Source: a virus
Virus record (IMG/VR): IMGVR_UViG_3300044274_000281
Strand: one strand, 5' to 3'
DNA length: 38,526 nt
Of the stretch, positions 1 to 38,526 are shown piece by piece (position 1 is the stretch's first letter; each line of letters opens with the position of its first letter). The notes under the pieces were generated by a model. It did not search any database. It was not told where the DNA came from and saw only the letters and a program-made list of their open reading frames with translations. The translations under genes were made by a program, and so were the position numbers.

Positions 1-45
1 TGCCTTACAAGCAGGGGGTCACTGGTTCGAATCCAGTATTACCCA
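1..45 (+). tRNA. 3' portion of tRNA-Val (anticodon TAC); the window starts inside the gene
   Basis: Anticodon loop CTTACAA (4-10), anticodon-stem 3' strand GCAGG, 5-nt variable loop, T arm ACTGG-TTCGAAT-CCAGT (21-37), acceptor 3' strand ATTACCC plus discriminator A (38-45). The 5' half would lie left of the window. Confidence 0.8.
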
Positions 46-47
46 CA
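1..47. repeat. attL core (direct repeat with 38480-38526)
   Basis: tgccttacaagcagggggtcactggttcgaatccagtattacccaca is identical at both ends. The true repeat length may be longer because the window truncates it. Confidence 0.9.
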
Positions 48-296: not shown

Positions 297-1520
297 ATGA
301 ATGCGAAGATTAAGCTGTATAAAAACGATGGTAAAAATAGAAACGGAGAGTTTCCAATAAAGTTGATCATTACCCATAAAGGTGTTCCAAAAAGAGAAAC
401 AATAGGACACTCACTGGAAGAAGACTGGGATTTAACAACTGAGCTTCCCAATATTAATCATCCTGATTATGATGAGTTGTATGAATCCATTTTGATAATG
501 CGTCAGAGATCAAGGAAGAATGCATTCAAAAAAATGACCGATAAAAAGTTAGCACTTGAATTTCTTAAAAACGAAGATCAGGACGTTTCTGAAACAGATT
601 TCTATAAGTTTATTGATGAACTAATTCAAAGGTTACGAAATAATAACAAAGACGGTTTGGCAGAATCTTATGATACAGCCAAACGACAATTGCAATATTT
701 TATACCTGAACTTGCAATAGAAAATATCAATAAGCCACTGATTGAGAAGTTCAAAGTATATAAAAAAAATGAAGGGATCGAAAATTCCTCATTAAGTGTG
801 TATTTAAGAAGCTTGAGAGCAATCTATAATAAAGCTATAGATTTTTATGGTATAACGGACAAACAACCATTTAAAGGTGCTTTCAAGAATATCCCAGTTA
901 GAAAAAGGAGAAAGAAAAACAGATGGTTAGATAAAGAGCAATTAATAAAGCTCGCAACAGGAGAACTTGAAAAAGAGAAAGAAATTATCTCCAGAGACCT
1001 CACTATGTTACAGTTCTATTTAGGCGGTGCTGACTTGATGGATGTTTATTATCTGAATAAAAATATGTTTTTTGACGACAGAGTTATGTTACAACGTAAG
1101 AAACTTGGAGAAAAAGGATATGAATTTGATGTAAAAGTATTCCCAGAAGCAAAAAAAATAATTGACAAATACTCAGATCCAAACCGATTGGATATTTTTC
1201 CATTTAAAAAAGAGCATAAAAGTTATACGTCATTTCGAAGAAATCATTTAAAACGGTTAAAGGTGATACAAGAAAAATTAGATATTCAACTGTTACCATT
1301 ACAGGATGGACTTACTACTAAAGTTATTCGGCATTCTTTTGCTACAATTGGTAAATTTCTGCATATCGACGAAGACATAATGCGTGAGATAATGGGACAT
1401 GAAAGAGATGATATCGATACTATTTACAAAGATAAATATCCAGAAGAAGAGCGTGATGAGGCACATTTAAAAATTATATCCTTAAAAAACGAAGATCATT
1501 CTTCTTCAAACATTTCATAA
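297..1520 (+). CDS. int: Tyrosine recombinase / phage integrase
   Basis: 407 aa. SAM-like N-domain signature (LSVYLRSLRAIYNKA). Catalytic-domain motifs VIRHSFAT (HxxR) and MGHERDDIDTIYKD (H...Y). Adjacent to attL. Confidence 0.9.
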   Translation: MNAKIKLYKNDGKNRNGEFPIKLIITHKGVPKRETIGHSLEEDWDLTTELPNINHPDYDELYESILIMRQRSRKNAFKKMTDKKLALEFLKNEDQDVSETDFYKFIDELIQRLRNNNKDGLAESYDTAKRQLQYFIPELAIENINKPLIEKFKVYKKNEGIENSSLSVYLRSLRAIYNKAIDFYGITDKQPFKGAFKNIPVRKRRKKNRWLDKEQLIKLATGELEKEKEIISRDLTMLQFYLGGADLMDVYYLNKNMFFDDRVMLQRKKLGEKGYEFDVKVFPEAKKIIDKYSDPNRLDIFPFKKEHKSYTSFRRNHLKRLKVIQEKLDIQLLPLQDGLTTKVIRHSFATIGKFLHIDEDIMREIMGHERDDIDTIYKDKYPEEERDEAHLKIISLKNEDHSSSNIS

Positions 1521-1936
1521 TATGAATTTTCCTCACAAGTCATATCAATGTTAAGTTCATTATCATCAATAATAACAAACTTCTCACTACTTTTTTTATA
1601 GTAAAAGCAGTAATTGTGCATGTAGTGAGGAATGAAATCTTTATCTTTCCAGCCTTTGCGAGAATTTCCCTTAGTACAAAATTGATCAATTATATTTTTC
1701 TCCTTTAAAACTAAAGTGTCATTAATAATCAAATGATCACCAAAAGGTTGTGTAGATATTCTTTTACCATGGACTGCATAAAAAATTGTATCGTTTTCAG
1801 TTTTATAAAGAATCAGATTGTGCCCGCTTTTATATCCATTCAATGAATATCCAAATACCAAATATGAGAACATGGTGATAATGATAGTAGCTATTGCTAT
1901 TAACAATATATTTTGAGGTTTAAAATAAGATTTCAT
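1496..1936 (-). CDS. Hypothetical membrane-anchored protein (N-terminal TM helix)
   Basis: 146 aa with hydrophobic segment ILLIAIATIIITMFSYLVFGY. Convergent with int and overlaps it by 25 nt. Confidence 0.65.
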   Translation of the reverse strand: MKSYFKPQNILLIAIATIIITMFSYLVFGYSLNGYKSGHNLILYKTENDTIFYAVHGKRISTQPFGDHLIINDTLVLKEKNIIDQFCTKGNSRKGWKDKDFIPHYMHNYCFYYKKSSEKFVIIDDNELNIDMTCEENSYYEMFEEE

Positions 1937-2154
1937 GCAATGAGCTTTTTAAGCTTAATAATTAAGATGTAAGCTCCTGTTATAACTAATAATACTAGAC
2001 AGAGTAGTATTAGAATTCCTAAAATAATAATAAATGATTCTGGAAACTCAACGTTGGCTCCAGGTCTAGTAACATGAGTTTTATCAACAGCATATATGTA
2101 TTCTATGAAGAAAAATAAAGTTAAGAAAAGTATGAGTTTCAAGCGCTTAATCAT
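1933..2154 (-). CDS. Small membrane protein (two hydrophobic segments)
   Basis: ATG at 2154 (MIKRLKLILFLTLFFF...), 10 nt after the upstream stop. The ORF-track start at 2220 would overlap the upstream gene by 56 nt. Confidence 0.6.
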   Translation of the reverse strand: MIKRLKLILFLTLFFFIEYIYAVDKTHVTRPGANVEFPESFIIILGILILLCLVLLVITGAYILIIKLKKLIA

Positions 2155-2164
2155 AATGAAAAGT

Positions 2165-2755
2165 TTACTCCCTAAATGTGTTGTATGAGATTGAAGTAGC
2201 CCATTTAGGTCTATTTGCAAGTAAATTCATAAAGATAGTGTCATCATCTATGTTATTTTGAAATCCAATCAAACTAGTATCTTTCAATTTTCTATCCGCA
2301 ATTTTTGTCAATGTTAAAGGAATATATAACCCAGTTCCAATATTTGTAACCATTCTTAAAATTCCTTTATCCAATAACCCTGCAACTGTAGGATCATCAA
2401 TGGGCATAATAACTGTCTTCTTTTCTTGAATTAAAAACTCTCGAATCACTGCTTGTTCATGTAAATCTAATGATTCCAAGTGTTCTATAATTAGATTATT
2501 TCTTTTCTTTTTATTAAAACGGTTTTCCAATTTATCTTTTAAATAGTAAACTATCGATAGTGCAATAAAAGAAATAGATGCAAGAAAAATTGGACCAAAA
2601 AATTTACCATAATCTTTTCTAAATTCGGTCATTCTAAGGCTTTCAATAAAACTATCTGTTGAAAAAATTAGAATCCCACTAATTATCCCCAAAAAAATGA
2701 AGATTTTCATTGGGATTTTGTCTAAATCTATTAAATCACTTAGTTTGAAACTCAT
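2165..2755 (-). CDS. Membrane protein, superinfection-exclusion (SieB-like) candidate
   Basis: ATG at 2755 (MSFKLSDLIDL...). Two N-terminal TM segments, then a soluble domain (LHEQAVIREFLIQEKKTVIMPIDDPTVAGLLDKGIL) reminiscent of the SieB family. The track start at 2800 is TTG and sits inside the predicted -7 box. Confidence 0.45.
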   Translation of the reverse strand: MSFKLSDLIDLDKIPMKIFIFLGIISGILIFSTDSFIESLRMTEFRKDYGKFFGPIFLASISFIALSIVYYLKDKLENRFNKKKRNNLIIEHLESLDLHEQAVIREFLIQEKKTVIMPIDDPTVAGLLDKGILRMVTNIGTGLYIPLTLTKIADRKLKDTSLIGFQNNIDDDTIFMNLLANRPKWATSISYNTFRE

Positions 2756-2797
2756 ATTTTTAATTATGTATACTAGTAATTTGTAGTAAAATATACC

Positions 2798-2805
2798 CAA
2801 ATATA
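2798..2805 (-). promoter_or_regulatory. Bacteroidota-type -7 box (TATATTTG = TAnnTTTG) for the SieB-like gene
   Basis: Plus strand caaatata. Exact match to the consensus, ~43 nt upstream of the ATG at 2755. Confidence 0.45.
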
Positions 2806-2840
2806 CTGTTTTTAAGTATAATAATTATTTTCCATCTTAT

Positions 2841-3728
2841 CTACAATTTGTTTGAAAGTTGTTTTAATTTCTTCTTATCGCTTTCTTCAGTATCTAATAT
2901 TGATTGATACTTTTCCAAATCAATATTTTTTTCAATATTTTCAGTTAGCAATTGATTTAATGTTCTTGGATTTAATGCATCAACCTCCCAAGATACTTGA
3001 CCGTATTTTTTTATATAATCCTTTGCTCTTGGATCAGTAATTTTTGCAGGATTTGGCGGTGGGTTATGCTCTCTTATTTGATTCATGGTTAATGCAATTG
3101 GCTCAACACTTAAAGCATTGTAAATCTCCTGTGCCTCTAGCATTTCATTTATGCGCTCATCAATATCACGTATCATGTCCATGCCGCTTGGATCATGGTC
3201 GCCTAAGTATAATATTTTACAATTTTTACCTTTAAAATATTGACTTCTGAACCTGTTATATGCATCATGTATAGCTGTAACTGAACCATAGCCTCTATTT
3301 ACTAATAGTTTTATGTGATACTTGCTAGTTATGCGTTTTAAAACTCCAGAAAGCGCGTCTTTTTCTACCCAAACCTCTATGTAAACATCTTGACCTTTTT
3401 GCCTATCTAGGCGGTACTGATTAATAGTGTCTTCAATTGCCTCTTGGGGGTCTTCGTTGTAATAAGGAATGTAAGGAACTCGCAACCTATCTTCTATCGC
3501 TTCCCAATTAACAACACCCGCCATTCTGCCCTCTTTTAAAAGCTTAGAGAGTTTAGCGTACTCAGATTGTTTATTTGGAATTACATCTCTTGAAACAAGC
3601 TGGTAGTACAACTGACGTAAAGTTAACTTGTATCCATCTGCTGCATATTCTTCAATAATAGAATTCACTAAATCGAGTTTTAACAAGTTTTTCTTGCTTA
3701 AATGAATTTCTCTAAACTTCGTTTTCAT
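2841..3728 (-). CDS. Topo VI subunit-A / Spo11-like protein ('Mini-A'-type: 5Y-CAP + Toprim, no B subunit)
   Basis: 295 aa. LTLRQLYYQLVSR (catalytic-Tyr context, cf. Spo11 RDIFY), VWVEKDALSG (Toprim Glu), YLGDHDPSGMDMI (Toprim DxDPxG). Confidence 0.6.
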   Translation of the reverse strand: MKTKFREIHLSKKNLLKLDLVNSIIEEYAADGYKLTLRQLYYQLVSRDVIPNKQSEYAKLSKLLKEGRMAGVVNWEAIEDRLRVPYIPYYNEDPQEAIEDTINQYRLDRQKGQDVYIEVWVEKDALSGVLKRITSKYHIKLLVNRGYGSVTAIHDAYNRFRSQYFKGKNCKILYLGDHDPSGMDMIRDIDERINEMLEAQEIYNALSVEPIALTMNQIREHNPPPNPAKITDPRAKDYIKKYGQVSWEVDALNPRTLNQLLTENIEKNIDLEKYQSILDTEESDKKKLKQLSNKL

Positions 3729-3749
3729 ATCGGTTTATTTACTGTTATT

Positions 3750-4544
3750 TTACATTACCCAATTGGCAATGCTTTTTGGTTTATAATTATTTTCAATTGC
3801 TTCTTTTACTTTTGCGATCGCAAATCCATCGCGAAACGTGTGACCAATTTTATTTTCAACTTCAACGTATCTGTCAAGTAATTCAGGATTGGCAATACCA
3901 GCTGTAACAAGTGCATCAAACGGACTGAATATGCAAAAGCAACATGATAGTCTAGGCATACCTAAATCATAGGCGAAGTGGTAAGGAATATCATTTGATT
4001 TTATACAGTCCCAGACTTCTTTAGTTGTCCAGTTCAAAATCGGATTGAACTCATACACTTTGCGCGTTTGGATAGTTAATCGTTGAATCAAAGAAATTCT
4101 TTTCTTTTTTGCTCGTTGTGGACTCTCTTCTTTACGAAATCCGAAAACACTCAATACTTCTTTTGCTTTGATTTTGTTGGATATTCTACGAATTACTTTG
4201 TCTCCTGGCGCGCGCTTGAAATCGCTAGTACAATATCGTTGATTTCTACTCGGCCACTTTTTTCTACGCTCCACATATTCAAGTAAATTCTCTTCGTAAC
4301 CGTTTTGGTCAACTCTTTTTTCGACTTCAACAAATAGACCGTATTTGGCGGCTTGTTTTACAACCAATTCTTTAGTGCCAGTCCATTCCATTTCTCCCAA
4401 ATCTTGATGGGATACAATGATTTTACTTTTAGGGAAATTTTGATTTTCCGCTTCCATGACAATCTCATGTAATGCACATACACTATCCTTTCCGCCAGAT
4501 GAATTGACAACTATTAAATCATATTTGCGTAAATCAATATTCAC
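3750..4544 (-). CDS. PAPS-reductase-family PP-loop ATP pyrophosphatase (DndC/SspD/CysH-like fold)
   Basis: 264 aa. VVNSSGGKDSVCALH (SGGKDS PP-loop), RYCTSDFKRAP, GFRKEESPQR, and C-terminal Cys cluster PRLSCCFCIFS. Confidence 0.8.
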   Translation of the reverse strand: MNIDLRKYDLIVVNSSGGKDSVCALHEIVMEAENQNFPKSKIIVSHQDLGEMEWTGTKELVVKQAAKYGLFVEVEKRVDQNGYEENLLEYVERRKKWPSRNQRYCTSDFKRAPGDKVIRRISNKIKAKEVLSVFGFRKEESPQRAKKKRISLIQRLTIQTRKVYEFNPILNWTTKEVWDCIKSNDIPYHFAYDLGMPRLSCCFCIFSPFDALVTAGIANPELLDRYVEVENKIGHTFRDGFAIAKVKEAIENNYKPKSIANWVM

Positions 4545-4549
4545 GATTT

Positions 4550-5197
4550 CTACTGTTTTTTGTTAATACTTATTTTTCGTTTGGCATTTTGGTTGCCAAT
4601 ATTTTTGTGACGTTTTCGGTAATCATAATTTTCATTCTCGAATATTTTGTAAATAGTTCCTTGAGATATTCCGAATGTATTTTTGATCTCTCTGATTGAA
4701 CTATCACTATCTTTATGCATCAATACAACTGCCTTAGATATCTTCTTAATTCTTTCAGTCATGCCTTTTGGGCGACCGCCTTTTATTCCTCTACTTCTTG
4801 ATGATTGTAATCCTGCCATGACACGTTCACGATTAATTTCCCTGTCCATTTGATTTAATGATGTAAATACATTGAAAATGAATCTTCCATGTGGTGATTT
4901 TGTGTCAAGAAACGGCTCTTGTATACTCTTGAATTCTATGTTGTTCGACTCAAAAAATTCCATCATTGAGAGCATGTGTTTAACGTTTCTTGCCAGTCGA
5001 CATGATTTCCAAACTATCACCGTATCTCCTTCACGTAATTTCATCAACAGAGTTTCTAAACCAATTCTGTCTTCCTTTGCTCCCGAAGCTATATCAGTCA
5101 TTATATTCTTTGGGTCAATTCCAAAGGCTTCCAATGCATCTGTTTGCATTTGTAAATTTTGAGCTGGAGTACTTACCCTTGCGTAACCGAATTTCAT
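4550..5197 (-). CDS. Small serine recombinase (resolvase/invertase, Hin/Gin-like)
   Basis: 215 aa. MKFGYARVSTPAQNLQMQ (catalytic Ser), GDTVIVWKSCRLARN, GRFIFNVFTSLNQMDRE, GGRPKG, C-terminal HTH. Confidence 0.9.
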   Translation of the reverse strand: MKFGYARVSTPAQNLQMQTDALEAFGIDPKNIMTDIASGAKEDRIGLETLLMKLREGDTVIVWKSCRLARNVKHMLSMMEFFESNNIEFKSIQEPFLDTKSPHGRFIFNVFTSLNQMDREINRERVMAGLQSSRSRGIKGGRPKGMTERIKKISKAVVLMHKDSDSSIREIKNTFGISQGTIYKIFENENYDYRKRHKNIGNQNAKRKISINKKQ

Positions 5198-5294
5198 TTT
5201 TGGAGTTTAGTGTAGTTTGTAATTATTTATCTTAATTTGTTTTGTAATAGCTTGATTATAAATAGTATGTGCCTAAATATTCAAATTCTGATTA

Positions 5295-6353
5295 TTATGA
5301 ATTCTCTTCCTTATTGAAATACAACAAGTAGTAGTACATCTGTTTTTCTTCATCCCAGCCTTTTTCCACAAACTTCTCTGCAGATTCGGGATTGATAAAA
5401 TTCATTTTGATTTGAATATTAGTATCAAGATTGATTGAATTCTTTATCCCTTTTCTTACCGCAGAAACCGCTTGGTTAGAAATTGGGAACTCTGTCACAT
5501 CTTCAATGCTATATTTCGGTCCTTTCTCAATTTTGTAGTGTTGGAATTCAGGAAGTAAATCAGGGTTTTCAATTACTTCATTCAAGAACTCAGTTTCAAG
5601 AAAATTGTCATTTTTTGCAAAGTGATTTACCGCACGATTCATAAACATCACTTCTTCTTTTTTGTCCTCGGCTGGAAACACCACATCTCTAGCAAAATTT
5701 TGACAGAACTTTAGGTATTTTTTAGTGTAGAAGTTTTCATCTTCAAAAGTGTCAACACCCAAAAAATGATCAAGCCAATACTTAGTGTCGTACTTATTGC
5801 TGTCTATAGATAGAATTTTGAAGCCTTCTTCTTTTCGGACGTTGAAGATGATACATCCTTTGTCAAGCTTATTCAACGAAATTCCTTGTTGTAAGAGGAC
5901 TTCAAGATTATTTCCATTCTCTTCTATTTGTAAGAAATCGTGTTTTATCTCCGATTTGAAGATTCCAATTGCATCTATTTTTTCATTGTCAATAATGACA
6001 TTTTCAAAGTATCCAATATACACTTCTCCGCTTTTAATATGTGGGTGTTGCGATTGTTCATAGAGTAGATTTGTGATTTTAGTTGAATTGATATGGATGC
6101 TTTCTGGCTGATTAAAAATATCAACCGCAATTGCATACAATGGATTGAATTCAACATCTACTTCACTCACAAATTGGAAATAGTTTTCTTCTTTCTCGCG
6201 AAAAGGCTTGAAAAAATATTCTTTTAGTAGTGGCTTCAATTCATCTGTTATCCAGTACGGTTCTTTGGATATTACCACTTTTTCATTTCTACTTTTGTTT
6301 CCAATTTTGTGGATGGAAACTGCGGAAAATTCCGCGCTGTACAAATTGATCAT
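5295..6353 (-). CDS. Nucleoid-associated protein, NdpA/YejK-like (Bacteroidota type)
   Basis: 352 aa. The N-terminus (AVSIHKIGNKSRNEKVVISKEP) resembles the vHkvGNK...l.lS signature of Bacteroidota 'nucleoid-associated protein' annotations. Confidence 0.5.
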   Translation of the reverse strand: MINLYSAEFSAVSIHKIGNKSRNEKVVISKEPYWITDELKPLLKEYFFKPFREKEENYFQFVSEVDVEFNPLYAIAVDIFNQPESIHINSTKITNLLYEQSQHPHIKSGEVYIGYFENVIIDNEKIDAIGIFKSEIKHDFLQIEENGNNLEVLLQQGISLNKLDKGCIIFNVRKEEGFKILSIDSNKYDTKYWLDHFLGVDTFEDENFYTKKYLKFCQNFARDVVFPAEDKKEEVMFMNRAVNHFAKNDNFLETEFLNEVIENPDLLPEFQHYKIEKGPKYSIEDVTEFPISNQAVSAVRKGIKNSINLDTNIQIKMNFINPESAEKFVEKGWDEEKQMYYYLLYFNKEENS

Positions 6354-6822: not shown

Positions 6823-7127
6823 GCTTCTTCGGTTTCAATTATGGGTGGATTTTGGCTTCCATTATTTTGGCAGAAAAGAACTTTGTTGTAATCACCTGCA
6901 AAACATTCTGCATTATTTCCATTTATTTTTAGCAATCGATTTTTCATTTTGGTGATGATCACATCATCTTTTTTGTGGTCCTCCTGGAGTAGAGAATATC
7001 TTGTGACTGTATTTCTACCTCCGTATTTGTGCTTTGCATTGTTTTTCAAGCAAATGATGGCTACTATTTTGGAACAATGCTTGCAAAAGTATTTTTGTCC
7101 GTGGCTACAATTGTTGGTTCTGGGCAT
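6819..7127 (-). CDS. Hypothetical Cys/His-containing protein (possible zinc binding)
   Basis: 102 aa. CSHGQKYFCKHC near the N-terminus. Overlaps the upstream gene end by 23 nt. Confidence 0.6.
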   Translation of the reverse strand: MPRTNNCSHGQKYFCKHCSKIVAIICLKNNAKHKYGGRNTVTRYSLLQEDHKKDDVIITKMKNRLLKINGNNAECFAGDYNKVLFCQNNGSQNPPIIETEEA

Positions 7128-8865
7128 GTTGAATTGTATTTTTTTCTACTTCTAAAATGTTGATTAATGCTCTGGCCAGTGTACCTTTTTTCTTGTGGTG
7201 TTTCTTTTCCAAACTTTCTACATAGCCTGTTAATTCTTCAAATCTGCATCTGCCTTTCAAATACTTACGTGCGCGTAAAGTAATTTTATGAGTCAGTTCT
7301 CTTTGCTTCTTTTTTTGGAGTGAATCTTTGTTTTTATCAGCTTCGTTCTTTAGATAATTTTCATGCTTTTTGAAGTGTTTTTTCGTATATCCAAAGCCAC
7401 CTTCGTAGGAATTGGTTCGTGTGAGATTGAAATATTCTCTTGGGTATAGCAGTTTATAATCAGGATATCTGGAACAGTAGCTTATTACCCATTTAAGGCG
7501 CCAGCGAAACTCTTCAAGTTTTTCTAGCTGATATTGTTTGGAATAAATACCAGATGTTTTGCTGAAAAAATAGTTATAAAAAAAGTATTTTATTGTGTTG
7601 GTCCATTCACCTTGGTATACTTTTTTGTCTTTAAATATTCGGGCGGTGGTGCATATAAAGTCATAGATAATTATTCGCCTAAACTGCTCTTTATCAATAG
7701 TTCCATACTGTGCTTCCCAAATCAAGTCTCGCATTGGTAAAGGTCTGTAGTTATTATGTATTCCTGCGGCTAGTTCATTAGCCAATTCATACACACTTTT
7801 ATTGTATAGCACACGAAATGACTCTCTTATCGGGAAAATTTCTTTTCTTTTTTTTGCCGCAGCTTTTTTTTCTTTTGGCGCAGCCGCCGCAACTTGCTTC
7901 CCTGTGTTCCTATAGAATTCTGATCCGTTAGGATCACTTATCGCAGAATTGGAAACCTGTGGATAGAGAACCGACTGAACCTTTTTTAAAGCTTCCAATT
8001 CTTCCTTATCTATGGCATCTGCTTTAGCAGTAGCCTTATTATTTTTATGTTGAACTTGGTTACTATAGGAACTGTTGTTATATCCGTATTTTGCTGTGAA
8101 ATCCCCTGTATCGGTATATTTTTCGTAAGGTTTGTATCCGTCAGATATGCGAAGAACCAAAGGGTTTAGCTTTGCCATTGGAGCGTAATCATAGCCTCGG
8201 AACCTGTATTCTTCAATCACTCCACAGTCCAATAATCGCGCTATGTGTCTATGAATTGTATCTTTATCTAGATCTAACTTTGGGACCTCAGTACTAGTGC
8301 CCAGATCCAAGTTTACATTTAACAATGATTTTGCACTTAGTGGAAATTCATATCCTTCATCCAGACGCAATTGGGTTGATTCATTTGCTTGTAAGCACCA
8401 TAGGTTTCTTCCCTTTAATTTATAGGCGCAATGACTGAGAATAGCTGCAAATATTTGTTTACTGGCTTGCTTTACTTTATGATGTTTCTTCTTTCTGATT
8501 TTAACGCGATTGTCGGCATTAAACTCATTTACATGGGCGTTGTATAGTTTTACAGGAATAGTGCAACGTCCGTATGTTTCTCGAAGTCTACGATCGTATT
8601 TGTCCTTCATTTTAAAGATATCCTGCTCCTGGACAACCTTCATCTGGACCATTTTGTCAATCAAACTGTTGTGGTTGTCTACATCGTTGTTTAATTTTAC
8701 CAGCGTAGTATTGTTATACTCGTGTACAAATAATGAGTAATTATCAAGTGACTGCTTAAAGTCTTCTGATGTAATTACTGGATAAGTAAGGCTCGGCGGT
8801 TGTGCACTATCATAGATAGCTGATACCGCCGAAACACCTTGCTTCCTGTGCCTTGACTGTAACAT
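7105..8865 (-). CDS. Large hypothetical protein; possible winged-helix DNA-binding / replication-initiation protein
   Basis: ATG at 8865 (MLQSRHRKQG...); the track start at 8889 is GTG inside a hairpin. wHTH-like DTIHRHIARLLDCGVIEEY, a basic Ala/Lys linker, and no Walker A motif. Function is inferred from position and size only. Confidence 0.7.
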   Translation of the reverse strand: MLQSRHRKQGVSAVSAIYDSAQPPSLTYPVITSEDFKQSLDNYSLFVHEYNNTTLVKLNNDVDNHNSLIDKMVQMKVVQEQDIFKMKDKYDRRLRETYGRCTIPVKLYNAHVNEFNADNRVKIRKKKHHKVKQASKQIFAAILSHCAYKLKGRNLWCLQANESTQLRLDEGYEFPLSAKSLLNVNLDLGTSTEVPKLDLDKDTIHRHIARLLDCGVIEEYRFRGYDYAPMAKLNPLVLRISDGYKPYEKYTDTGDFTAKYGYNNSSYSNQVQHKNNKATAKADAIDKEELEALKKVQSVLYPQVSNSAISDPNGSEFYRNTGKQVAAAAPKEKKAAAKKRKEIFPIRESFRVLYNKSVYELANELAAGIHNNYRPLPMRDLIWEAQYGTIDKEQFRRIIIYDFICTTARIFKDKKVYQGEWTNTIKYFFYNYFFSKTSGIYSKQYQLEKLEEFRWRLKWVISYCSRYPDYKLLYPREYFNLTRTNSYEGGFGYTKKHFKKHENYLKNEADKNKDSLQKKKQRELTHKITLRARKYLKGRCRFEELTGYVESLEKKHHKKKGTLARALINILEVEKNTIQHAQNQQL

Positions 8866-8880
8866 ATTATGTTTATTTAT

Positions 8881-8923
8881 GAAACTCACTGCTAGTCGCC
8901 AAACTATATAGGCAGTGGGTTTC
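8881..8923. other. 12-bp stem hairpin between the tRNA-Met gene and the 594-aa gene
   Basis: GAAACTCACTGC - 19 nt - GCAGTGGGTTTC (one G-U). The T-run follows only on the plus strand. Confidence 0.5.
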
Positions 8924-8936
8924 TTTTATTACTTTG

Positions 8937-9009
8937 TAGCGGGGACAGGACTCGAACCTGTAACCTCTGGGTTATGAGCCCAGCGAGCTACCATTTGCTC
9001 TACCCCGCG
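8937..9009 (-). tRNA. tRNA-Met (anticodon CAT) with initiator-type features
   Basis: 73-nt cloverleaf: CGCGGGG-TA-GAGC-AAATGGTA-GCTC-G-CTGGG-CTCATAA-CCCAG-AGGTT-ACAGG-TTCGAGT-CCTGT-CCCCGCT-A. It has a C1/U72 mismatch, A11:U24, and three G:C pairs closing the anticodon stem. Confidence 0.9.
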
Positions 9010-9064
9010 TGAGGTTTTAACTAACAACAATAAAATTTAGCCTTTCAAATAAACTACCTCCTGA

Positions 9065-9238
9065 TTATTTTTTAGAAACTCTTAGTTGTCCAATCCAATC
9101 TTCAAATCCATCTTTCGGGTGTTTTTCTACCTCCTTTGCCAAATACTTATCATGTAAGGTTATGGCAATGATTGTAGTTAGGATTCCAACGGCAAAGCCG
9201 CCAAAAGCCGCAATAATTGTTAAATAATTTACTTCCAT
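9065..9238 (-). CDS. 57-aa single-pass membrane protein (below ORF-track cutoff)
   Basis: MEVNYLTIIAAFGGFAVGILTTIIAITLHDKYLAKEVEKHPKDGFEDWIGQLRVSKK. The ATG lies 7 nt after the upstream stop. Confidence 0.45.
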   Translation of the reverse strand: MEVNYLTIIAAFGGFAVGILTTIIAITLHDKYLAKEVEKHPKDGFEDWIGQLRVSKK

Positions 9239-9245
9239 CATTTCT

Positions 9246-10218: not shown

Positions 10219-10470
10219 TTATTTTTTAGGCGCATTGTAGTCGCACCCTTTTTCATCAGATGTTACTTCCTGTTGACTTATTTTGACTTCACCAAATGAT
10301 AAACGCCCTTCGTCAAACCATTGTGCTTCTGGGTACTTCTTGGTGTCATCACAATCGGGTTTTACCAAATATTGATCACATCCAGTTAAGTATTCGGCAT
10401 GCCCAACAATTACTCCACTAAATTGTGTAATCTTGTCTGTGGCAGTTCTTCCTAAATTTTGATTTTTCAT
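10219..10470 (-). CDS. Hypothetical protein
   Basis: 83-aa ORF. Confidence 0.7.
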   Translation of the reverse strand: MKNQNLGRTATDKITQFSGVIVGHAEYLTGCDQYLVKPDCDDTKKYPEAQWFDEGRLSFGEVKISQQEVTSDEKGCDYNAPKK

Positions 10471-10832: not shown

Positions 10833-10896
10833 TTAGGTTAAATGAGTGCGGCGTTGCTTCCGCACTCACTACGCTTAAAAATATTATTTAACCTAA
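10833..10896. promoter_or_regulatory. Nested inverted repeats upstream of the 10817 gene
   Basis: Outer 11-bp IR TTAGGTTAAAT (10833-10843) / ATTTAACCTAA (10886-10896). It encloses a 9-bp G+C-rich stem TGAGTGCGG (10843-10851) / CCGCACTCA (10860-10868). Confidence 0.4.
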
Positions 10897-11142
10897 AAAT
10901 TATATTATGCCTACTCTGATCAGTTTTCGGCTTCCCTGTTATCTTTAAAATGCTCGTCTTTCCGAGCCGTCAGACTCAATTCATCGTTTGTCTTTTGAAT
11001 TCCCGTCTGTCTTGTCATTTCACTATTCTTTCCAAGATGTCATCGGTTAGGTTGACCGCCACCGAAAGGTCAAGACGTAATCAATTGAGTCGCTTCTTAC
11101 ATATTGAATGGGTTACGTTCATGCAATTGCTATATTTTAAAA

Positions 11143-11785: not shown

Positions 11786-12153
11786 TATTTTAAAGCTAAT
11801 TGTAGTTGCTCGTCTTCTTCTGCATGAAGCAACTCGTTAAAAATGGGAAGTCTTATGTTCCAATATTCACAGAACACTGTTTTTAAGGTCAAATACGCCT
11901 TTTTCATTACATCTTCGGAAATCGGTACACCACTTGTACTAATGCCCGATAGTAGGATGCTGTAATAAACTTTTGGGTTTTTTGCTTTGGAGAGTTGCCT
12001 TTGCGCCTCTTGGCGAATTTCTTTGTTGGATGCATCATTTATCCATACAAAACGGTCATGATACGTAAGCGTTTTCAAAGTATCTGTTACGACTATAGTG
12101 TCGTTGTCGGACTTTTTGTTTATTTTGACGCTTCGTTGGCACATAATTGGCAA
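11785..12153 (-). CDS. Hypothetical protein, first gene of the leftward early operon
   Basis: 122-aa ORF directly downstream of the divergent promoter region. 1-nt overlap with the next gene. Confidence 0.7.
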   Translation of the reverse strand: MPIMCQRSVKINKKSDNDTIVVTDTLKTLTYHDRFVWINDASNKEIRQEAQRQLSKAKNPKVYYSILLSGISTSGVPISEDVMKKAYLTLKTVFCEYWNIRLPIFNELLHAEEDEQLQLALK

Positions 12154-12194: not shown

Positions 12195-12211
12195 CAAACA
12201 TAATACATTTG
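12195..12211. promoter_or_regulatory. Back-to-back divergent -7 boxes of the lysis/lysogeny switch
   Basis: caaacata (12195-12202) reads TATGTTTG on the minus strand. TACATTTG lies at 12204-12211 on the plus strand. Both match TAnnTTTG. Confidence 0.5.
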
Positions 12212-12257: not shown

Positions 12258-12701
12258 GTGAATAATACCTCCCAAAAAATATCTCAGATAATTCATGAGC
12301 TAAAGCTTAATAATAATTCCTTTGCTAAAGCTCTGGGAGTCACCAATCCAACTATAGATGGAATGACGAAAGGTAGATTGAGAAGTGGGGAATTAGTAGT
12401 GACAAAACCAAGCTTTGATATTATTCAAAAAATGGTCAATACATTTGGCATAAATCCTTTATTTCTATTTGATTTAAGTGACAAAATGTTTTTAAATGAT
12501 GATAAAAAAAGGGAAATAGATTCTTTTTCTGAAAGCGAAATAGTCAAACACGTATCAGAAAATTGGGAGAGATATCAAAGAAATGAAATAATGATTCAAA
12601 TCATTGATGGAATAAAAAAAGATGAAATGATAGATAGATTGCTAAAAGAAAAACAAAAGCTTATGAACTCTAAAAATCAAAAAAATACAGCCGAAAATTA
12701 G
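12258..12701 (+). CDS. XRE-family HTH repressor (CI-like)
   Basis: 147 aa with a GTG start. HTH: ISQIIHELKLNNNSFAKALGVTNPTIDGMTKGR. Divergent from the early operon. Confidence 0.75.
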   Translation: MNNTSQKISQIIHELKLNNNSFAKALGVTNPTIDGMTKGRLRSGELVVTKPSFDIIQKMVNTFGINPLFLFDLSDKMFLNDDKKREIDSFSESEIVKHVSENWERYQRNEIMIQIIDGIKKDEMIDRLLKEKQKLMNSKNQKNTAEN

Positions 12702-38479: not shown

Positions 38480-38526
38480 TGCCTTACAAGCAGGGGGTCA
38501 CTGGTTCGAATCCAGTATTACCCACA
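38480..38526. repeat. attR core = displaced 3' fragment of tRNA-Val
   Basis: Identical to 1-47. It is preceded by AT-rich phage DNA (...attataatttaa) that cannot form the tRNA 5' half; the anticodon-stem 5' strand would be AATGC instead of CCTGC. Confidence 0.9.

Follow-up and report, generated by a model that had tools for sequence, protein, structure and literature searches.

Phage-borne CAU tRNAs with an unpaired 1x72 position and an A11:U24 pair are known from Sinorhizobium phage phiLM21, Pseudomonas phage PaMx74, Cellulophaga phage phi17:2, and the mycobacteriophages of cluster C1. In the temperate phiLM21 (50.8 kb), an initiator-like tRNA-Met is the only annotated tRNA in the stretch that we retrieved; PaMx74 has an initiator-like tRNA that is missing from its annotation; and phi17:2 has one (A1xC72, A11:U24, AGG/CCU) that adjoins an elongator Met gene in an array. 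Here, we describe a gene of this type in a stretch of viral DNA of 38,526 nucleotides (IMG/VR record IMGVR_UViG_3300044274_000281; the whole stretch is hereafter the window), from a phage of the same bacterial family that phi17:2 infects. The window tRNA shares the unpaired 1x72 position and A11:U24 with these relatives, but it is of the CxU type, which is not that of phiLM21 (GxA), PaMx74 (CxA), or phi17:2 (AxC). Unlike the initiator-like tRNAs of phi17:2 and the mycobacteriophages, it does not lie within a large tRNA array, and none of these phages resembles the window phage in gene content.

Among cellular tRNAs, the C1xU72 initiators of Nocardia farcinica and Streptomyces have the same C1xU72, A73, G2:C71, C3:G70, A11:U24, GGG/CCC, and CUCAUAA loop as the window tRNA, which differs from them in being borne by a phage of a low-GC flavobacterium; its D loop has 8 nt against their 9, its T loop is UUCGAGU, its Levitt pair is A15:U48, and its CCA is not templated. 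E. coli tRNA-fMet (metZWV, metY) is 78% identical, with the same D stem and the same anticodon stem core and loop, but it has A72 and not U72, a templated CCA, and a chromosomal location. Its 5' heptamer, CGCGGGG, had been singled out from the sequence as shared with the phage gene, and alignment to metZWV agrees. An initiator tRNA that shares a transcript with protein genes has a precedent in E. coli, in metY-rimP-nusA-infB.

Two further phage systems invite comparison. Like the nuclease-evading phage tRNAs (van den Berg et al. 2023, PMC10264068), the window gene is a phage copy of a VapC-targeted tRNA species, but in the anticodon loop it matches E. coli and Nocardia, whose loop is the canonical initiator one. 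The phage also resembles those with tRNA-dependent lysogeny (Guerrero-Bustamante & Hatfull 2024, PMC10865867) in being temperate, integrating in a tRNA gene, and carrying a tRNA; here, however, the isotypes differ (Met versus Val) and the 47-bp core rebuilds an intact tRNA-Val.

The gene under study is as follows:

8937..9009, minus strand: initiator-type tRNA-Met(CAU) gene (ARAGORN; Rfam 65.2 bits; cloverleaf fold; determinants from sequence)

Its 73 nt match the Rfam tRNA family (RF00005) from end to end at 65.2 bits (E 3.9e-12; gathering score 29), and ARAGORN calls a tRNA-Met(cat) at 8936-9009(-), the sole complete tRNA of the window; the tRNA call is far beyond chance expectation. The minimum-energy fold of the RNA, CGCGGGGUAGAGCAAAUGGUAGCUCGCUGGGCUCAUAACCCAGAGGUUACAGGUUCGAGUCCUGUCCCCGCUA, is a cloverleaf with positions 1 and 72 unpaired, C1 standing opposite U72 with no Watson-Crick pair at 1:72. 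The D stem, GAGC/GCUC, carries A11:U24, and the anticodon stem has G29G30G31/C39C40C41 closing the canonical 7-nt loop CUCAUAA. Also present are A73 and the pairs G2:C71 and C3:G70, which belong to the published initiator determinants as those of the formyltransferase (PMC7949028). The remaining stem pairs are all Watson-Crick (20 of 20), the tertiary nucleotides are U8, A14, G18G19, U54U55C56, and A58, and no CCA is encoded (GCUA is followed directly by CAAAG). The sequence-only reading had the coordinates right and left the strand, which is minus, unstated; the perfect cloverleaf, unpaired 1:72, A11:U24, and G29-31:C39-41 that it reported were all recovered with ARAGORN, Rfam, the fold, and the sequence itself.

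To place this tRNA among the CAU classes we relied on two proxies, a published feature census and pairwise identity. The census (Ardell & Hou 2016, PMC5143459) covers 9,917 bacterial CAU tRNA genes, of which 4438 are initiators and about 2,700 each are elongator Met and Ile2. C.U at 1:72 is found in 626 of the 4438 initiators and A11:U24 in 4430 of them, neither occurring in any elongator Met or Ile2 gene, while GGG,CCC at 29-31/39-41 is found in 3849 initiators, 2 elongator Met, and 1 Ile2 (PMC5143459). The phage tRNA carries all three of these marks, each of which the census finds almost nowhere outside initiators. Pairwise identity is 78% with the E. coli initiator metZ, 62% with the elongators metT/metU, and 59% with ileX (Ile2); it reaches 89% across the 73 nt with the initiator-type CxU tRNA of Nocardia and Streptomyces, the combination CGCGGGG...CCCCGCUA being found in Nocardia farcinica and many Streptomyces replicons. 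BLAST of the tRNA against 5,426 E. coli genomes hit a median of 4 places per genome, which fits the four initiator genes, the metZWV triplet alone having been checked directly. The census marks and the pairwise identities therefore effectively exclude the elongator and Ile2 readings, and by these two proxies the assignment of 8937-9009(-) as a functional-looking, initiator-type tRNA (tRNA-fMet type) is well supported, in line with what had been proposed from the three determinants. That proposal had set C1/U72 beside the C1/A72 of E. coli, and a departure from the norm at this position is not supported. C1xU72 is no deviation, because C.U is the second commonest natural initiator configuration in the census (C.A 3392, C.U 626, then U.U 207, C.C 90, U:A 63, and A.A 39; PMC5143459), and it also occurs in Nocardia and Streptomyces. 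The supplements of Ardell & Hou contain no per-taxon 1:72 data.

The gene is truly phage-borne. The ends of the window and the gene adjoining the left end are:

1..47, plus strand: attL core, 3' part of the host tRNA-Val(UAC) (Rfam partial tRNA; 47-bp repeat; full tRNA-Val in contig L002)
297..1520, plus strand: tyrosine integrase adjoining attL (PHROG 1; Phage_int_SAM_5)
38480..38526, plus strand: attR core, direct repeat of 1-47 (exact 47-bp repeat)

With att repeats at both ends, the integrase, and structural genes (head protease, terminase, and tape-measure, on the plus strand at 16-38 kb), the window is a complete 38.5-kb prophage running from attL to attR. The tRNA gene lies 8.9 kb inside it, with phage genes on both sides, and so in the prophage and not in host flank. 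The same phage is present on at least 14 metagenome contigs, and the tRNA is identical in all seven of the other contigs that span it. One contig, L002, extends beyond the prophage, and its host portion has tRNA-Val (intact), folC, and exbD. The best match of the host folC product is in Kordia sp. SMS9 (75%), which has exbBD-folC-tRNA-Val in the same arrangement at a site without a prophage; from this similarity and the empty site we infer that the host is a Kordia-like member of the Flavobacteriaceae. The only tRNA genes in the 21 kb around the Kordia folC are two tRNA-Val genes, and at the empty site (L163:11289-11464) two tandem tRNA-Val(UAC) genes adjoin folC. The host tRNA-Val, like the phage tRNA, has no templated CCA. 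Tested against this arrangement, tRNA-dependent lysogeny was excluded: the interrupted host gene is tRNA-Val(UAC), mismatched in isotype with the phage tRNA-Met, and is rebuilt intact.

Megablast of 25 kb of the window gave no match among GenBank phages, and the exact phage tRNA sequence was not found in IMG/VR. A pattern for the 5' half of the tRNA had no match in metagenomes and matched contig L040 alone in IMG/VR. The L040 tRNA (6034-6109) is the most similar one on an IMG/VR contig, with C1xU72 and an encoded CCA. Just upstream of it, L040:6376-6618 encodes a 41%-identical homologue of the window's 83-aa protein (10219-10470), and L040 and the window have no further genes in common.

The surroundings of the tRNA gene, from the switch region leftward, are:

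12258..12701, plus strand: CI-like HTH regulator gene (PHROG 8/4/2967, transcriptional regulator or repressor)
12195..12202, minus strand: candidate Bacteroidota -7 element TATGTTTG of the leftward operon (motif scan, consensus match only)
9065..9241, minus strand: 58-aa ORF upstream of the tRNA (hydrophobic N-terminal half; no family match)
9010..9064, minus strand: 5' leader, from the stop of the 58-aa ORF to tRNA position 1 (sequence; motif scan)
8866..8936, minus strand: 3' trailer CAAAGUA..., up to the ATG of the 586-aa ORF (CACUGC/GCAGUG hairpin)
7105..8865, minus strand: 586-aa early protein P0001, downstream of the tRNA (family without annotation; winged-helix-like middle domain)

The tRNA thus sits in a 199-nt gap between the 58-aa and 586-aa ORFs, all on the minus strand, and the minus-strand block to which they belong begins at 12153, divergent from the HTH regulator gene. 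In the CI-side intergenic region, TACATTTG at 12204-12211(+) stands back to back with TATGTTTG at 12195-12202(-). The latter is the single copy of the Bacteroidota -7 motif, TAnnTTTG, on the minus strand upstream of the tRNA, with none between there and the tRNA gene. A direct repeat, ACATTTGGCAT, at 12205 and 12226 in the switch region looks like an operator pair. Nearer to the gene, the motif scan did not find the exact Bacteroidota -7 motif in the leader (9010-9064), a one-mismatch -7-like TAAATTTT lies 22 nt upstream of the tRNA, and scans for sigma-70-type promoters and terminators around the tRNA gave no excess of sites over shuffled sequence. In relatives of the 586-aa protein (L158, L159, L161), a CI-like or HTH gene is likewise divergent from the operon, and in L161 this gene is a Phage_CI_repr. 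Gene order and the consensus motif support a place for the tRNA within a leftward early operon diverging from a CI-like repressor gene, and the earlier reading, with the gene in a temperate phage's early operon, is upheld indirectly by the att repeats, the CI-like gene, gene order, and the -7 motif. Elsewhere on the minus strand, the Rfam DUF805b RNA motif is matched at 10908-10940(-) (37.3 bits, gathering score 35.6) and is followed by an 8-bp G+C-rich hairpin at about 10842-10872(-); motif and hairpin lie upstream of a 70-aa coiled-coil-like ORF, which is not a DUF805 protein.

The 586-aa protein has no match in Pfam, PHROG, NCBIfam, or PDB sequences, and its AlphaFold2 model, though confident (pLDDT 82.9), matches no fold in the PDB at E <= 0.001. 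An exhaustive profile search assigns it to a family that comprises 184 clusters when grouped at 50% identity. Other searches added little: a profile of 50 family members run against a word-indexed protein database returned two already known proteins only, neither protein nor profile had a match in IMG/VR or JGI metagenomes, and a scan of GTDB genomes with the protein gave a single MAG contig, already known. A few family members have weak winged-helix HTH matches, and a conserved TIxNHxxRLxEAGVL segment reads like an HTH recognition helix; its probable place is among DNA-binding proteins of the early or replication type. A tRNA enzyme acting together with the tRNA was considered and dropped, there being no family, PDB-sequence, or fold support for it. 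In the window and in L158-L162, the family gene always lies a few small genes downstream of the divergent CI-like or HTH gene.

A 42%-identical homologue of this protein, P0002, is encoded on L010, which comes from a Bacteroidota MAG, and directly upstream of it is again a CAU tRNA (L010:190-263), with C1xU72 and A73. The trailers of the two syntenic tRNAs start alike (CAAARUA in the alignment). Between the tRNAs themselves, eight pairs (7:66, 10:25, 11:24, 13:22, 27:43, 28:42, 31:39, and 49:65) are changed on both sides yet remain paired, and none is broken. Such paired compensatory changes argue for selection on a working tRNA. By its sequence the L010 tRNA does not qualify as a canonical initiator: two additional nucleotides separate position 9 from the D stem, and it has U11:A24 and U31.G39. 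The family of L010-type tRNAs extends to more than 20 IMG/VR contigs (L032:4240-4315, L048, L070, L072, L079, L082, L084, L087, L122, L126, L133, L138, and others). Its members have the same two additional nucleotides ahead of a CUGG/CCAG D stem, with U11:A24 or similar by covariance-model register, an anticodon stem of GGU/GCC (U31.G39), and an unpaired 1x72 that is mostly G1xA72 and sometimes C1xU72; most of their contigs have low GC (median 0.33). GGU,GCC does not figure in the list published for the 4,438 bacterial initiators (PMC5143459).

The slot upstream of the 586-aa gene holds a CAU tRNA in two lineages and none in three. No tRNA at all is present on five contigs with a homologue of the 586-aa protein, namely L158 (42% identity), L159/L160, and L161/L162 (about 24% for both pairs). 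These three tRNA-less lineages indicate that the tRNA is dispensable for this phage type, an accessory gene in a recurrent slot and not a core gene.

A private initiator tRNA in a phage of this kind had been called unusual in the sequence-only reading, and this our surveys contradict: initiator-like tRNA genes are frequent in phages, mid-sized and temperate ones included. About 280 GenBank phage records have a similar tRNA, several of them checked individually. A pattern search of IMG/VR gave 138 loci, from which 128 tRNAs were parsed, a biased sample and not a frequency estimate in that the T arm and some of the 3' strand of the acceptor stem were fixed in the pattern. Most of the 128 have A11:U24 and GGG/CCC, and at 67 of the 138 loci the tRNA is alone within the retrieved stretch. 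At 1x72 the parsed tRNAs are varied: UxU (35), GxA (20), CxA (19), CxU (11), AxA (10), and UxA (10). The CxA share, 19 of 128 phage initiator-like tRNAs against about 76% in bacterial genomes, is a lead only, given the T-arm bias of the phage sample. GC content is low at most CxU loci (median 0.34). On two very low-GC contigs (24-25%), a suppressor-type tRNA with anticodon UUA, which reads UAA, adjoins a C1xU72 initiator-like tRNA (L035:10187-10259 and L054:10337-10409), a pairing expected in stop-codon-recoding phages. The window tRNA is a further example of the known phage-encoded initiator-type tRNAs, a real but fairly ordinary feature.

How might a prophage of a Kordia-like host use such a gene? 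Biased initiation, compensation for host tRNA cleavage by a defence system, and a decoy role had been suggested from the sequence. We think it reasonably probable that this is an operon-expressed initiator tRNA that is used in initiation and raises or safeguards the initiator supply. The tRNA would be transcribed as part of the leftward early operon, divergently from the CI-like repressor gene, and then excised by RNase P and the 3' processing enzymes of the host. Most Bacteroidetes tRNA genes are without a templated CCA, and the host CCA-adding enzyme would supply the CCA end here. By its sequence the gene has what maturation, charging by MetRS, formylation, and placement in the P site require (determinants as in PMC7949028). 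Host MetRS would charge the tRNA via the CAU anticodon and A73, and the open 1x72 position, together with G2:C71, C3:G70, and A11:U24, would let the host formyltransferase act on it; the G:C triplet of the anticodon stem would hold it in the 30S P site. The phage would benefit in that the supply of initiator tRNA is raised or safeguarded while its genes are expressed after induction or infection, and extra initiator supply in lytic growth appears to be the most likely role. The size of this benefit is conjecture, because codon-usage compensation cannot explain an initiator tRNA.

The main rival to initiator supply, which we regard as unlikely but worth keeping in view, is a counter-defence or backup role, in which the phage tRNA replaces a host initiator destroyed or blocked in infection, or acts as a decoy for the enzyme responsible, such as a VapC-type PIN toxin that cleaves tRNA-fMet or a toxin that modifies the acceptor end. 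That phage tRNAs counter tRNA-targeting defences is a published hypothesis, and VapC does target initiator tRNA (PMC10264068); the highly varied 1x72 of the IMG/VR phage initiator-like tRNAs could also reflect selection at the acceptor end. However, the window's anticodon stem-loop, GGG-CUCAUAA-CCC, is canonical; it has none of the loop mutations proposed for nuclease resistance and lends no support to nuclease evasion. As an initiator form C1xU72 is natural and common, neither the host nor the window gave any identified tRNA nuclease, and phages as a rule do not encode tRNA-fMet where the VapC cut falls inside the anticodon (PMC10264068).

We see little chance that the gene serves lysogenic conversion, with the prophage expressing an extra initiator tRNA copy that aids growth of the lysogen. 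The one-mismatch TAAATTTT 22 nt upstream of the tRNA makes an own promoter possible, and farther downstream on the same strand, in a distal block at 1496-6353, are moron-like genes:

5295-6353, minus strand: NA37 nucleoid-associated protein
4550-5197, minus strand: serine recombinase/invertase (resolvase)
3750-4544, minus strand: PAPS-reductase-like protein
2841-3728, minus strand: PHROG 6247 protein
2165-2800, minus strand: SieB

Against such a role, no exact Bacteroidota promoter motif lies between the tRNA and the switch region, and the operon diverges from the CI-like gene and is thus expected to be repressed in the lysogen. It is similarly doubtful that the tRNAs of this slot, canonical in the window and non-canonical in L010, differ from the host initiator (for example at position 72) in a way that gives phage mRNAs privileged initiation; were this true, the slot tRNAs would stay usable when a host toxin or the phage inactivates the host initiator.

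Less probable again is a passenger or structural role, the tRNA being a captured host gene without a selected function, punctuation for RNA processing, or part of the integration system (as in tRNA-dependent lysogeny, or as a secondary att site). The three related phage lineages without the tRNA would agree with this, and tRNA-dependent lysogeny is documented in temperate phages (PMC10865867), but all identity elements and tertiary nucleotides are intact, the syntenic L010 tRNA keeps its fold through 8 compensatory changes, and the host gene disrupted is tRNA-Val and not Met, and is rebuilt intact. Finally, we give almost no credence to an elongator tRNA-Met, or a tRNA-Ile2 with C34 converted to lysidine, a reading backed only by the shared CAU anticodon and A73 and opposed by C.U, A11:U24, and GGG,CCC occurring in 0, 0, and at most 2 of the about 2,700 genes per class and by the lower identity to metT/metU (62%) and ileX (59%) than to the E. 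coli initiator (78%).

For an initiator tRNA in a phage, C1xU72 should not count as an anomaly. There is also a lesson for annotation, in that "tRNA-Met" calls in phages often hide initiator-type genes (phi17:2, phiLM21, PaMx74). The prophage could serve as a model only with a host that can be grown in culture. To the known phage-encoded initiator-type tRNAs, the window adds one clean case, a solitary gene of what appears to be an early operon, in a temperate phage from the marine Flavobacteriaceae, a group that initiates translation without Shine-Dalgarno pairing.
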